Part shown: piece after piece, positions 6,959 to 13,342 of the stretch | Layout of the letters: every line of letters begins with the position of its first letter | How positions within the stretch are numbered: the stretch's first letter is position 1 | Source of the DNA: Candidatus Foliamicus sp. | Lineage (GTDB): Bacteria > Pseudomonadota > Gammaproteobacteria > Steroidobacterales > Foliamicaceae | Strand: one strand, 5' to 3' | Assembly (NCBI GenBank): GCA_965221325.1 | Contig: OZ244880.1 | DNA: 64,000 nucleotides | Program-made: the position numbers and the translations under genes | Notes under the pieces: model-generated | Told to the model about the DNA's origin: nothing | Databases searched by the model: none | Seen by the model: the letters and a program-made list of their open reading frames with translations, nothing else

Positions 6959-6994
6959 GACTCGGGCTACGACACGGACCCTAAGCCGGGCACA

Positions 6995-7000
6995 TATAAT
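6995..7000 (+). promoter_or_regulatory. Candidate -10 hexamer for tRNA-Ser
   Basis: A perfect TATAAT lies 8 nt upstream of the predicted mature tRNA 5' end. Only a weak -35 (cgacac, spacing about 19) is present. Confidence 0.4.
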
Positions 7001-7008
7001 CCTCCCCC

Positions 7009-7099
7009 GGAGGGATGCCGGAGAGGCCTAACGGCGCTGATTCGAAATCAGATGGGGGCGATTCGCCCCACGTGGGTTCGAATCCCACTCCCTCCGCCA
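7009..7099 (+). tRNA. tRNA-Ser (anticodon CGA), class II with long variable arm, CCA encoded
   Basis: I folded it by hand. The acceptor GGAGGGA pairs with TCCCTCC, and the anticodon loop is TTCGAAA (anticodon CGA). The variable arm is GGGGCG-att-CGCCCC. The T arm is GTGGG-TTCGAAT-CCCAC, followed by discriminator G and CCA. Confidence 0.9.
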
Positions 7100-7199
7100 G
7101 ACCGCCCGGCTCTTGTAGTAAACACGAATGTCATTCCTCCGCGCTCTATGTCCTTGGCTAGTGGGGTCGGCTCATCGGTAGGTTGGCTGATTCTATGAT

Positions 7200-7661
7200 T
7201 CAGATATTCACGTGTTTAGTGAACAGAGGAAGAGATAGCTTCTCAAGTTCAATCCCCTTCATCAAGAGTATTTTTTTATAGAAATCAAGCAATGTATCGT
7301 GTATCTCCTCAAGATCGTCTAGCATGACTTGGCACCCGTCTGATGAGTTCCTTCGGAAGTTATGGTCCCGATAAAAGGTGTGAAACAACCTATTGCGATT
7401 CTTCACCACTTTCTCAAATTCGCCCTCCACGCCTTTCAAGATCTTGTTGGATTTTGCGGCTTGCTTGAAAAGTTGTCCCAGCGTTCTTCTGTTTATGGCC
7501 CGATAAATCTCTGTCGCACGAAACGGGTCCGGCTTAGAGAGCAAAGCCGCTGCACAAGCCTCTGAAGTAAAGAGAATGGTGCCCAATTCGCACTCAAGCA
7601 ATTGTGCGGCTTCCGCCACCATTCCGAATTTCTGGTATACATCCTCTATATTGGTAGGCAC
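7200..7661 (-). CDS. Hypothetical small protein with a HEPN-like RNxxxH motif
   Basis: The 153-aa ORF is low-GC and looks all-helical. It contains KNRNRLFHTF, which fits the R-N-x-x-x-H (Rx4-6H) motif of HEPN RNase domains. The size is typical of stand-alone HEPN toxins. The functional assignment rests on this motif only. Confidence 0.5.
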   Translation of the reverse strand: MPTNIEDVYQKFGMVAEAAQLLECELGTILFTSEACAAALLSKPDPFRATEIYRAINRRTLGQLFKQAAKSNKILKGVEGEFEKVVKNRNRLFHTFYRDHNFRRNSSDGCQVMLDDLEEIHDTLLDFYKKILLMKGIELEKLSLPLFTKHVNI

Positions 7662-7821
7662 GTTCGAGATTCCCTCGAGTGGTTACGAATTGGTCACGCA
7701 CGCGTGACTGCTCCGGTGCCATGGAGCGGTTGTTGGTCTATCAGTTCGGTCCACATCCAAAGTAGCTCCATCGGGACAGCGATCAATCAAGGCGCTTGAT
7801 ACTACTTGAGCAGTTTTCTGT

Positions 7822-8688
7822 TCAATTTCCTGGCGCATTCATCGTCTGCCGCGTAATCGGCGCTTTGAATGCCTCTAGTGATTCACTATGAAGCCAGCGC
7901 AGCGACGAGCCCGTAGTTGGCCGCAAATATTCGTTCGCTGCATCGGTCATACGCGGAAATGTGTTCTTCAAAGAAGTTAACCATCCGCGAAGGCGAGGTT
8001 CAGCGGAATATCCTTCGGGCAACACGGAAAGCATTGACCGAACCATCAGTTCAGCGTTCTCGCAGGCGGCCTCGTGGTTGACGATCCAGTCGATAATCTC
8101 ATCGTTTCGGCACATTGCTGGCCTACGCTCTGGCGCAAGTGACTTCATGATCCTGTCCCAGTCGGAAGGTTCCACCATGGTTAAATTAGCGGTAAACAAT
8201 GCATCGAGATCATGAATGATGACACCTTGCGCGAGATGCAGGTCATCCGGATCCGTACGTGCTTGTTCCCACATCCTCGCAAGGGCGAAGACTCGATAAT
8301 CGGTTGGTGGATCAGGTGTCTGCCTATGTAGCCAAAGGTCGTCTTCTTGATACGCTTGGCGCCACTGAAAATACTCGTCAAGCGCCTCCTCAGTTCTTTC
8401 GGAAAACGATTGGTTGGAAATTCGCATCCGTAGCGCGTTGCGAATGGCGCGCGGCATCTCTTCGTCAACTTCATCCGTTGAAACAAGCACGACCTCATGG
8501 AGTTCCGCGAGTAGCCCAATGAAACGTCTGGCAGCCCTGCGGGCCAAGAGGCTGCTGTCTACAAGTGCCTGCCGCACGAGTTCCACCTCGCGCTTATCCG
8601 TTGAACAGTTCGGGGTACTCAGCAGAAAGGGCTTGTTCGGTTTGCTCGCGTTCCTTGATCTCCCGATCCAGTTGCTCGGGCCATCCAC
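7822..8688 (-). CDS. Hypothetical protein (288 aa), no recognisable domain
   Basis: It is the longest ORF in the low-GC islet and is co-oriented upstream of the HEPN-like gene. The composition is acidic and Trp-rich, unlike the shadow ORFs. I recognise no motif. Confidence 0.55.
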   Translation of the reverse strand: MDGPSNWIGRSRNASKPNKPFLLSTPNCSTDKREVELVRQALVDSSLLARRAARRFIGLLAELHEVVLVSTDEVDEEMPRAIRNALRMRISNQSFSERTEEALDEYFQWRQAYQEDDLWLHRQTPDPPTDYRVFALARMWEQARTDPDDLHLAQGVIIHDLDALFTANLTMVEPSDWDRIMKSLAPERRPAMCRNDEIIDWIVNHEAACENAELMVRSMLSVLPEGYSAEPRLRGWLTSLKNTFPRMTDAANEYLRPTTGSSLRWLHSESLEAFKAPITRQTMNAPGN

Positions 8689-8938
8689 AATGCGCCAAGG
8701 CCCGTCGGGTTACGACTGGTTCACGGTTGGATGGCGCAATCCACTCGTCTTGGTTGTGCCGCGCACCGGAATGCGGGACGCAGGATCGTGCTTGTGCTCT
8801 CGAATTCACGATTCCATATTATATGCGCTGCACCGTAATCACCTCGCGAGGCTTCGTTCAGGAACGTCGGGCGGAGAGATGCTGATCGTTCCAGGCAAGT
8901 GATGCAATAATGCGCAGGTAGCTACTGCCCGCCCGCGC

Positions 8939-9556
8939 ATGATGAAGCTGTATTCGTTTTCGCCGACGCCCAACAACCGCAAGGTCGAGGCGTTCATCAA
9001 GCATTTCGGGCTCCCGGTGGAGATCCATTCGATGGGGTTCCGCGAGCGGGAGAACAAGACCGAAGCCTATCTGCGCATGAACCCGATGGGGAAGGCTCCG
9101 CTGCTGGTTGACGGCGATTTCCACCTTTGGGAATCGAACGCCATTTTGTGCTACCTGGCCACGCTGCACCCGGAAACGGGCATGCTGCCCCGGGACCCCA
9201 GGAGCCGGGCGGATTGCGACCGCTGGCTTTACTGGCAAGCGTTTCACCTGATCAATACGATTATCGCCATGCGCGCCAAGAGCGCTTCCGCCGACCAGGA
9301 CATCGCCCTCAATATCGGCGTCCTCGACGGGCAGCTTGAAGGCCGGGAGTTCGTGCTCGGGGATTTGTCCATCGTCGATTTCGCTATCGCTCCGTACCTG
9401 CTGGGTCGCCATGGACAGGCTATCGACTATGACCCGTTTCCCAACGTTCGGAGCTGGCTGGAGCGCTGCAGGCAGCTTGACGGCATGGCGGCAACCGTAT
9501 TCAAGCCCCGCGCCAAGCGAGCGCCGGACCGCCAGGCTGCGTCCGATGCTTCCTGA
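8939..9556 (+). CDS. Glutathione S-transferase
   Basis: The thioredoxin-like N-domain reads MKLYSFSPTPNNRKV...NPMGKAPLLVDGDFHLWESNAILCYLA, with a helical C-domain. Total length is 205 aa. Confidence 0.9.
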   Translation: MMKLYSFSPTPNNRKVEAFIKHFGLPVEIHSMGFRERENKTEAYLRMNPMGKAPLLVDGDFHLWESNAILCYLATLHPETGMLPRDPRSRADCDRWLYWQAFHLINTIIAMRAKSASADQDIALNIGVLDGQLEGREFVLGDLSIVDFAIAPYLLGRHGQAIDYDPFPNVRSWLERCRQLDGMAATVFKPRAKRAPDRQAASDAS

Positions 9557-9663
9557 AAGAGCCAGGGCCTGCGGCTGGCGCGGCGCCATGGTTTTCCGGT
9601 AATCTGGCACTCGTAGACGGCGGTCGCGGCGAGAAGCGGGCGCCTTTGCAGGAGAGAGATTTG

Positions 9664-12629: not shown

Positions 12630-12878
12630 TCAGGACGGTTCGGAGGGAGGAGCTACGCGCACTTGTCTTGCTTGTTCACGCCGCAGACACAAAGGGTGAC
12701 CGCCCGCAGCAATTTCCAGCGGGTCGCCGCCCAAGGCGCGGCGCAGAACCCGCACGGCAACGCCTGGAACGAGTCCAAGCGTCAACAGAGCACGCGCTTG
12801 CTGACCATTGCCGAGGATGGAGATGATTCTGGCGCTGCTGCCATCAGGCAGTTCATTGAGCCCTATATCGCTTGTCAA
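12630..12878 (-). CDS. feoA: Ferrous iron transport protein A
   Basis: An 82-aa SH3-like FeoA (LGLVPGVAVRVLRR...GDPLEI) lies directly upstream of feoB. Confidence 0.9.
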   Translation of the reverse strand: MTSDIGLNELPDGSSARIISILGNGQQARALLTLGLVPGVAVRVLRRALGGDPLEIAAGGHPLCLRREQARQVRVAPPSEPS

Positions 12879-12919
12879 TCGGTCTTCCCAGACTATACCT
12901 AGCCATTTGCGAGTCTAAC

Positions 12920-12944
12920 ATGAATGTGAATGACTAACATTCAT
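12920..12944. promoter_or_regulatory. Fur-box-like inverted repeat in the feoA / DUF1820 divergent intergenic region
   Basis: ATGAATGT-n9-ACATTCAT is a perfect 8-bp inverted repeat in AT-rich context. It lies 42-66 nt upstream of the feoA start. feoAB operons are commonly Fur-repressed. Confidence 0.45.
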
Positions 12945-13006
12945 GCCGCTTTCGTGGCAATTCCGACTGTTCGGGGAAAGTCGTTTCGGTATAATTTGAG
13001 CCGATC

Positions 13007-13342
13007 ATGGCGCCCAAACCCCTCTACCGTATAAGCTTTCTGAACCAGGGAAAGGTTTATGAAATGTATGCGCGCAGCGTGTCGCAGGGAGGCATGTTCG
13101 GGTTTGTCGAAGTGGAAGGTCTTGAATTCGGCAAACGCACGTCGCTAGTTGTCGATCCCGGCGAGGAGCGCATCAAGACGGAGTTTTCCGGTGTGCGCCG
13201 CACCTACATTCCCATGCACTGCGTACTCCGCATCGACGAAGTGGAAAAACGCGGCGTGAGCAAGATATCCGCCGCTGACGAAAGTAACGTGACGCAACTT
13301 CCCACGCCCGTTTATGCGCCCGGAGGCGCCGGTTCCGATTAA
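13007..13342 (+). CDS. DUF1820-family protein
   Basis: [36 protein letters not shown] matches my recollection of the conserved small protein found next to purL in gammaproteobacteria. Confidence 0.75.

Follow-up and report, generated by a model that had tools for sequence, protein, structure and literature searches.

In the classic type II toxin-antitoxin (TA) arrangement, represented by the VapBC/PIN_3 modules, a small gene is followed by a nuclease gene, and pairs of PIN_3 and RHH_6, an example of this type of TA, reportedly occur in Tn3 transposons. The acidic set of PIN domains comprises one Asp that follows strand 1, one Glu, another Asp within the helix 'D..D..hlA' and a final Asp at 'TxD'. 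HepT of the HepT/MntA (type VII TA) systems carries the motif RX4HXY. In HEPN domains in general, as described by Anantharaman et al. (2013, PMC3710099), helix 3 ends with an Rx4-6H motif whose Arg is followed by a polar residue (N, D or H), and helices 2 and 3 are separated by an insert. Solo HEPN proteins are found among the abortive-infection (Abi) proteins (AbiU2, AbiV, AbiJ, AbiD/F, and Ymh; PMC3710099), and the gpA-gpQ interval of P2-like phages, which holds old and tin in P2 itself, has been described as a defence hotspot (Rousset et al. 2022, PMC9122126). Here, a low-GC islet that directly follows a tRNA-Ser gene in a stretch of 64,000 nucleotides of Candidatus Foliamicus sp. (the whole stretch is called the window below) was compared with these systems. 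The islet holds three minus-strand open reading frames (ORFs) in two segments, and the explanation that is considered fairly probable is that these are two independent cassettes, one with a VapBC-like ORF C/B pair and one with a stand-alone ORF A of the HEPN type. The independence of the two cassettes, the gene models, the conserved residues and the contexts are results of the comparison, whereas the nuclease activities, the TA behaviour and the defence role that are attributed to the islet proteins below are predictions.

Two cassettes at the tRNA-Ser flank

The only tRNA gene in the window is a tRNA-Ser(CGA) gene (7009..7099, plus strand, identified with ARAGORN) that is intact, includes the CCA end and forms the left boundary of the variable region. 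As described in an earlier note on this DNA, the GC content drops directly past the CCA end (from approximately 0.63 to 0.42-0.54). The same note treated the low-GC stretch as a single unit, but it consists of two segments that differ in GC content and history (0.485 for positions 7100-7782 and 0.538 for positions 7783-8843, compared with 0.626 for the whole window). The first segment, cassette 1 (7104..7782, 679 bp), carries ORF A, and the second segment, cassette 2 (7783..8843, 1061 bp), carries a probable promoter, ORF C and ORF B.

The minus-strand ORFs were first listed as 7200..7661 (153 aa, ORF A) and 7822..8688 (288 aa, ORF B) with a gap of 160 bp between them. The two co-oriented ORFs and the gap stand as the earlier note gave them, but the larger ORF was over-extended and a gene of 71 aa was missed. 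The close relatives of ORF B are all 251-256 aa long (251-270 aa among wider homologs) and in L002 stop codons are found a few codons upstream of the conserved start (L-numbers denote contigs or loci that carry relatives of the window genes). The true start of ORF B is therefore placed at the GTG at 8577 and not at 8688, which results in a protein of 251 aa (7822..8577, minus strand). DNA conservation with the relatives extends approximately 165-265 bp upstream of this start because of the third gene, ORF C (8594..8809, minus strand, 71 aa), which is located 16 nt upstream of ORF B.

The cassettes occur apart from each other in related DNA. Positions 5736-6796 of L008 correspond to window positions 8843..7783 with 85% identity (blastn) and, 21 bp further, the match continues from window position 7103 downward (L008 6818 onward) through the same tRNA-Ser and the same ABC transporter gene. 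It follows from this pattern that ORF C/B abuts tRNA-Ser in L008 and that the 679-bp segment 7104-7782, which is cassette 1 with ORF A, is absent. Cassette 2 also aligns with positions 5748-6763 of L001 (81% DNA identity) where the flanks are unrelated. Overall, ORF B relatives were found without an ORF A gene in at least five other contexts: no ORF A relative is located near the copy between carB and carA (L002), near the copies beside transposase or insertion sequence (IS) genes (L001 and L004) or near the truncated copy between giant adhesin-like genes (L005-L007). Likewise, none of the 80 genome loci and none of the 11 viral loci with an ORF A relative contains an ORF B relative (best blastp E=0.08). 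In L012, an ORF A relative that is C-terminally truncated (133 aa) is found among IS elements approximately 3.6 kb from the same tRNA-Ser, with no ORF B within the 9 kb examined. The cassette junction in the window (7782/7783) falls inside the 160-bp spacer.

By these alignments, the islet resolves into two unrelated cassettes that appear to have been acquired independently and adjoin by chance in a variable tRNA flank. The earlier note had proposed that ORF A and the larger protein upstream form a two-gene toxin/sensor or Abi-like pair, and had itself named a lack of co-occurrence in other genomes as grounds for giving the pair up. The homologs of the two genes were not found together elsewhere, neither at the 80 genome and 11 viral loci nor in L008, and the proposed pair is thereby refuted.

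Two perfect hairpins had been pointed out in the spacer, and their sequences and coordinates are correct. The hairpins belong to different cassettes: GTCACG-cacg-CGTGAC (7693..7708) is part of cassette 1 and precedes the start of ORF A by 32 nt, and ATCAAG-gcg-CTTGAT (7786..7800) is located in cassette 2, 22 nt past the ORF B stop, where it is a weak candidate for a 3' stem that is degenerate in L008 (one mismatch). Their number is not beyond chance, as perfect 6-bp hairpins occur at a frequency of 0.5 per 160 bp in the window sequence and at least two are present in 10% of all 160-bp segments. Neither hairpin is followed by a T-run, hairpin 7786-7800 was not called as a terminator, and a scan of the spacer for promoter and terminator consensus sequences returned nothing convincing. 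A small ORF upstream of ORF A (7683..7838) was considered and rejected as a partner of ORF A, because the cassette junction runs through it and the sequences on either side of ORF A lack conservation in L009.

ORF A, a candidate stand-alone HEPN-type protein

ORF A (7200..7661, minus strand, GTG start) encodes a protein of 153 aa that has at least 130 homologs, nearly all of approximately the same length. Relatives are present at 80 loci of GTDB genomes from many phyla, the nearest one (72% identical) in Candidatus Foliamicus, a gammaproteobacterium, and copies of the family are found on plasmids of Pantoea and Sinorhizobium. The protein matches phrog_12893, a family without a function (E=3.5e-21), and no Pfam, NCBIfam or PADLOC family. 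The sequence KNRNRLFHTF, which the earlier note had reported as an RNxxxH motif, is present as R89-N-R-L-F-H94 (7380..7397, minus strand). R89, N90, L92, and H94 do not vary among 52 homologs, three distant paralogs and the phage and plasmid relatives, giving the family motif RNxLxH. Other invariant positions in the alignment of the 52 homologs are Y9, G13, the run A18-A19-Q20-L21, E23, G27 and a loop with H100-N101...R104-N105. In the distant paralogs (hhalign probability 97.7% for the one that was tested), conservation is limited to the VY..G, TLG, RNxLxH and G positions. Diverged paralogs are found in tandem next to some of the ORF A relatives (L043:5390-5899, L051:5531-5998 and L068:6456-7328).

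The earlier note had called for a structure prediction of the 153-aa protein. An AlphaFold2 model with a predicted local distance difference test (pLDDT) score of 91 is helical throughout, with helices at residues 5-37, 46-57, 61-76 (an insert), 79-99, and 107-134 and a loop at residues 100-106. The RNxLxH motif (residues 89-94) is located in the C-terminal half of the penultimate helix (79-99); the loop and the last helix come after it. The order of the elements (H1, H2, insert, H3 with the motif near its end, loop, H4), compared at the level of secondary-structure order only, fits the HEPN domain as it has been described, and the polar N90 directly after R89 fits the published HEPN motif (PMC3710099). 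Weak matches to HEPN profiles were obtained for one of the 52 family members (HEPN_MAE_28990, E=0.0045) and for one paralog (HEPN_Apea, E=0.008; HepT-like, E=0.07). Thus, the invariant motif, its HEPN-like position and a confident all-helical prediction with a HEPN-like helix order support the assignment made in the earlier note, whereas a significant profile match or a Foldseek match to the fold was not obtained.

Several results weigh against a HEPN-type RNase. No curated HEPN profile of Pfam, NCBIfam or PADLOC was matched significantly by ORF A, the 52 members, their consensus or nine diverse members. Comparisons by hhalign with DUF4145, Ymh, Cthe2314-like and RiboL-PSP-like neighbours of ORF A relatives gave probabilities of <1%, with the motif aligned in two cases (the HEPN references were small alignments of Ymh and RiboL-PSP-like proteins). 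A Foldseek search of the ORF A model against PDB and BFVD returned no match with E<=0.001 and no HEPN protein in the top 50, Foldseek being weak on small helical bundles, and sequence searches with four queries (hmmsearch/phmmer) found no relevant PDB chain. Furthermore, a toxic RNase without a visible inhibitor gene needs explaining. Finally, a tRNA gene is located within 6 kb at seven of 60 ORF A loci, which is approximately the chance level by a rough estimate, and adjacency to a tRNA gene is not a trait of the ORF A family. With both sides considered, the alignment and the model make membership of ORF A in the HEPN superfamily probable.

Among the described HEPN proteins, ORF A resembles the solo Abi proteins in that it is all-helical and its penultimate helix ends in an invariant R-N-x-x-x-H, and in being a single gene without an antitoxin that is distributed across phyla in mobile or defence contexts and adjoins other HEPN genes. 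In contrast to these proteins, ORF A has no significant profile match, is a bare domain of 153 aa without an N-terminal sensor domain and carries an additional invariant loop ('HNFRRNS') after the motif. With HepT, ORF A shares the minimal HEPN size, the similarity of RNxLxHxFY to RX4HXY and, through a paralog, the weak HepT-like match. Unlike in HepT, the Tyr is located one residue further from the His, and an MNT nucleotidyltransferase gene is neither present in the window nor recurrent at the 80 loci: no protein with the MNT signature GSx10DxD is encoded in the islet, and NTP_transf_2-type proteins are not recurrent in a set of 75 upstream neighbours taken from the loci of ORF A relatives.

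A partner of any other type was not found either. Clustering of the ORFs within 3 kb of ORF A at the 80 loci yielded no recurring partner but only antisense artefacts and a few tandem paralogs, and the 75 upstream neighbours belong to 54 different Pfam families, many of them housekeeping. The similarity to the copy in L009 (79% DNA identity) ends 12-15 nt beyond the coding sequence of ORF A. This copy, the closest full-length relative (75% identity), is located between two integrase genes and is preceded by a gene for a 110-aa Sel1-repeat protein (L009:4509-4841); Sel1 partners have been described for the AbiU2 family (PMC3710099). A motif of the form RNxx[AILVF]H is present in 12 of 145 immediate neighbours of ORF A relatives, compared with approximately 0.7 expected by a rough frequency estimate, and several of the proteins that carry it are genuine or borderline HEPN proteins, with matches to Ymh (E=2.4e-43), HEPN_Cthe2314 (E=4.9e-14), RiboL-PSP-HEPN (E=0.001) and DUF4145 (E=0.06).

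ORF A relatives also occur in P2-like phages. A tblastn search identified gp38 of the P2-like Salmonella phage PsP3 as a relative of ORF A; it is the last gene, at the right genome end, after gene A, tumA, tumB and gp37, and its position is between gpA and gpQ, the portal gene. Among 5426 complete E. coli genomes, 31 carry a gp38 relative with 79% DNA identity. The ORF A relative of the single E. coli prophage that was examined (SaT040) is located between gpA, encoding the replication endonuclease, and the portal gene, and the same gpA-portal layout is found in nine of the 11 IMG/VR viral contigs with an ORF A relative. The relative adjoins the portal gene in eight of these nine contigs (one has an extra gene between them), and the genes between the relative and gpA vary. 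In the SaT040 prophage, the relative follows three uncharacterised genes encoding a 380-aa protein, a 158-aa protein and a DUF2971 protein (L106:2099-5420), and in other prophages (L116 and L117) the companions differ or are absent. The earlier note had recommended a check for defence islands, and the phage relatives of the 153-aa gene are located in the published gpA-gpQ defence hotspot. The supplementary table of Rousset et al. (PMC9122126) lists WP_001576649, the E. coli protein, only as 'hypothetical'. In this cos-proximal hotspot, the ORF A relatives are usually found next to the portal gene and have variable companions; in contrast, ORF A of the window is located on the chromosome at a tRNA flank, without a prophage, and the E. 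coli relative has no assigned function. Because of the position in P2-like phages, an Abi-like or defence role of ORF A is plausible.

ORF A would then be a stand-alone HEPN-type RNase that acts as a single-gene abortive-infection or exclusion factor. Two copies of the motif would probably be brought together in a homodimer, forming a composite active site that would be held in check until infection. The strongest alternative is that ORF A is not a nuclease and that RNxLxH is part of another helical fold, in which case the protein could be a regulator, an anti-defence protein or another accessory protein of phage hotspots. Such a protein would agree with the lack of a significant profile or structural link to HEPN and of a partner gene that restrains a toxin, and phage hotspots hold non-defence cargo as well, with the E. 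coli relative labelled only as hypothetical. This alternative is nevertheless rather unlikely: R, N and H never vary between subfamilies that otherwise have little in common, the motif position and the helix order fit HEPN, a paralog shows the weak HEPN_Apea and HepT-like matches, and the relatives cluster with bona fide HEPN genes.

The ORF C/B module of cassette 2

The larger protein had been described as acidic, Trp-rich and free of the GSx10DxD motif, which holds true (pI approximately 5.1-5.3, 2.8% Trp, motif absent), and as belonging to no recognisable family, which does not, given a PIN_3-like N-terminal domain and a conserved small upstream partner of its own. Members of the ORF B family are rare: among 1.84 billion cluster representatives, 30 belong to it. 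In an alignment of 23 of these sequences, approximately the first 140 residues show a signature resembling that of PIN domains: 'ALVDssLL' with D6, followed by E25 and E40 and then by 'TDPxDxHLAxxxxxxxLDALxTxNxxM...DW' with D109 and D112. E25, E40, D109 and D112 are conserved in at least 90% of the sequences; D6 is kept in nearly all members that cover the N-terminus but falls outside the invariant and >=90% columns. In the window, the PIN_3-like domain comprises approximately residues 1-141 (8155..8577, minus strand) and reads 'ALVDSSLLA', E25, E40 and 'TDPDDLHLAQ...LDALFTANLTM...DW'. Nine of the 23 family members match Pfam PIN_3 (PF13470) nearly end to end, the best scores being 26.7 and 26.1 bits (E=1.1e-5 and 1.7e-5; profile positions 6-113 and 17-115 of 115) compared with a cut-off of 27. 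The C-terminal part of ORF B adds approximately 110 helical residues without matches.

The reading of ORF B and ORF C as a PIN-type toxin and its antitoxin is weakened by four observations. ORF B of the window has no Pfam match of its own and the matches of its relatives fall just under the curated cut-off; the last acidic PIN position (TxD) is occupied by an Asn (T-x-N130), with a conserved D-W a few residues further on; the AlphaFold2 model of ORF B, built from eight sequences, is unusable (pLDDT 42); and no DNA-binding domain (RHH, AbrB, HTH or Phd) is recognisable in the presumed antitoxin, ORF C. On balance, the N-terminal half of ORF B is a candidate for a divergent PIN_3-type nuclease domain.

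ORF C has no match in Pfam, NCBIfam or PHROG. The C-terminal 44 residues (REPVVTRRALAxCGWPEQLDREIKEREQTEQxLSAEYPELF) hardly differ between five loci (the window, L001, L002, L004, and L008; DNA identity 68-85%) and the N-terminal half is poorly conserved. A TATAAT box (8818..8823, minus strand) is located 8 nt upstream of the GTG of ORF C. The box 'GCATATAAT' is kept in four of the five full modules that were aligned and reads 'GCGTATAAT' in L002. It is probably the promoter of the ORF C/B operon, in which case the mRNA would be leaderless or near-leaderless. Three more distant ORF B relatives that were looked up (L099, L102, and L103, 24-31% identical) each have a gene for a protein of 63-72 aa directly upstream. 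The spacing between the small gene and the ORF B-type gene is 16 nt in the window and 21 nt in L102, and the two genes overlap in L099 and L103. The small proteins share with ORF C the sequence P-V-T-R-x-x-L/M followed by G/D-W/F and an acidic helix (...EE), and the same pair of a small gene and an ORF B-type gene is found with different flanks in L099 and L100. In L002, the module stands alone between carB and carA, which are normally contiguous, as a clean TA-like insertion within a housekeeping pair (L002:5300-7000).

The two genes are thus co-directional and close or overlapping, with the small gene first, and have been kept together and moved as a unit, which is the layout of type II TA modules, and ORF C/B appears to be a VapBC-like module. 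Its similarities to the VapBC/PIN_3 modules extend to a probable promoter of its own and, as a tentative point, to conserved acidic residues. It differs from them in the length of ORF B (251-270 aa in the family, with the additional C-terminal domain), the PIN_3 scores just below the cut-off, the Asn at the last acidic position and the rarity of the ORF B family; moreover, ORF C carries none of the RHH, AbrB, Phd or HTH domains and cannot be placed in an annotated family. Cassette 2 would act as a self-contained operon that is read from the TATAAT promoter through ORF C into ORF B (candidate antitoxin and candidate toxin, respectively). ORF B may be a Mg-dependent PIN RNase with D6, E40 and D109/D112 as acidic residues, and ORF C may bind and neutralise it via the conserved C-terminal segment. 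Such an addictive pair could spread as a selfish unit, and the extra domain of ORF B may modulate its activity.

The length of ORF B, almost twice that of VapC because of the conserved extra domain of approximately 110 aa, and the missing DNA-binding domain of ORF C would also be expected of a two-gene anti-phage system in which the C-terminal domain of ORF B senses infection and ORF C is a regulator or chaperone. Some of the ORF B relatives are located near NACHT/STAND-like ATPases, a YoeB/Phd pair and IS elements, which agrees with such a role. However, PADLOC returned no match for the islet proteins, several copies of the module are found among housekeeping genes (carA/carB, methyltransferases), only one marginal match was obtained in viral contigs, and the order of a small gene before a nuclease gene is the one classically seen in type II modules. 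An anti-phage system is therefore considered unlikely, and ORF C/B is best described as a putative TA module.

The insertion site and the meaning of the two families

The islet is flanked by ordinary genes, with an ABC-2 transporter to the left and GST, DUF6580 and FeoB to the right. No ORF for a tyrosine or serine integrase was found in positions 7100-9640, no IS remnant in positions 7100-8940 and, by repeat search, no second copy of the tRNA-Ser 3' end around the islet, where a search for att-type repeats and terminal inverted repeats gave only short chance matches. The earlier description of the islet as integrase-less is thereby confirmed, and its interpretation as horizontally acquired, integrase-less cargo at a variable tRNA flank holds up. 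The cargo at the same tRNA-Ser varies between contigs: ORF A and ORF C/B in the window, ORF C/B alone in L008, and IS elements with an ORF A relative in L012. In Candidatus Foliamicus contigs L011/L038 and L012, the interval from tRNA-Ser to DUF6580 is densely occupied by IS genes (rve, DDE_Tnp_1_4 and Transposase_mut). Overall, the tRNA-Ser/DUF6580 site appears to be a long-standing insertion hotspot. As in tRNA-linked genomic and defence islands, foreign cargo of low GC content begins at the 3' end of the tRNA gene and differs in content among relatives; unlike these islands, the islet has no integrase and no att direct repeat and is only 1.75 kb long.

An origin as the decayed remnant of a single integrative element, which brought both cassettes to tRNA-Ser together and then lost its integrase and att repeat, would explain the position directly at the tRNA 3' end and the low GC content, and IS-rich cargo is present at the same tRNA in L012. 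It is quite unlikely, as an integrase, a repeat of the tRNA 3' end and IS remnants are all missing from positions 7100-8940 and the cassettes differ in GC content and occur separately at the same site in relatives. That ORF A, as a HEPN toxin, and the larger protein upstream form one toxin/sensor or Abi-like system is very improbable: the two genes point the same way across a gap of 160 bp in which no terminator was called, which would permit read-through, and one of the 75 upstream neighbours of ORF A relatives also has a PIN_3 domain, but in L008 ORF C/B is present at this tRNA and ORF A is not, no examined ORF B relative is adjoined by an ORF A relative, the 80 genome and 11 viral ORF A loci are free of ORF B relatives, and the cassette junction is located in the spacer.

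Two further features of the window were recorded. A smaller GC dip (0.52; positions 12750-13200) coincides with the divergent spacer between a feoA-like gene (12630-12878, minus strand) and a gene for a 111-aa protein (13007-13342); it is located upstream of purL and is ordinary in appearance. The sequence GC(A/G)CATATAAT is present upstream of tRNA-Ser (window 6990-7000) and, inverted, upstream of ORF C (8818-8828); both copies resemble -10 boxes, and the likeness is probably coincidental.

The islet illustrates that two genes lying side by side at a tRNA flank need not form a system, since comparison with one related contig separated them. Both cassettes represent previously unannotated families of familiar kinds and leave current concepts unchanged. 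A more far-reaching proposal is put forward tentatively, at somewhat less than even confidence. According to this proposal, the ORF A family (phrog_12893; PsP3 gp38; WP_001576649) would be a partner-less HEPN-type anti-phage or exclusion factor that is conserved in P2-like prophages (E. coli and Salmonella) as well as in islets on the chromosomes of Acidobacteriota, Planctomycetota and many Proteobacteria, and ORF C/B would found a new PIN_3-like TA subfamily whose antitoxin is novel and whose toxin has an extra domain. If true, the PIN-like pair would add a rare TA subfamily with a new kind of small partner. The ORF A family is the more useful lead: it is small and widespread, has no entry in Pfam, NCBIfam or PADLOC, recurs beside the portal gene in the P2 hotspot and is available as an E. 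coli copy. If active, ORF A would add a minimal stand-alone HEPN effector and would raise the question of how an RNase without a partner stays silent.

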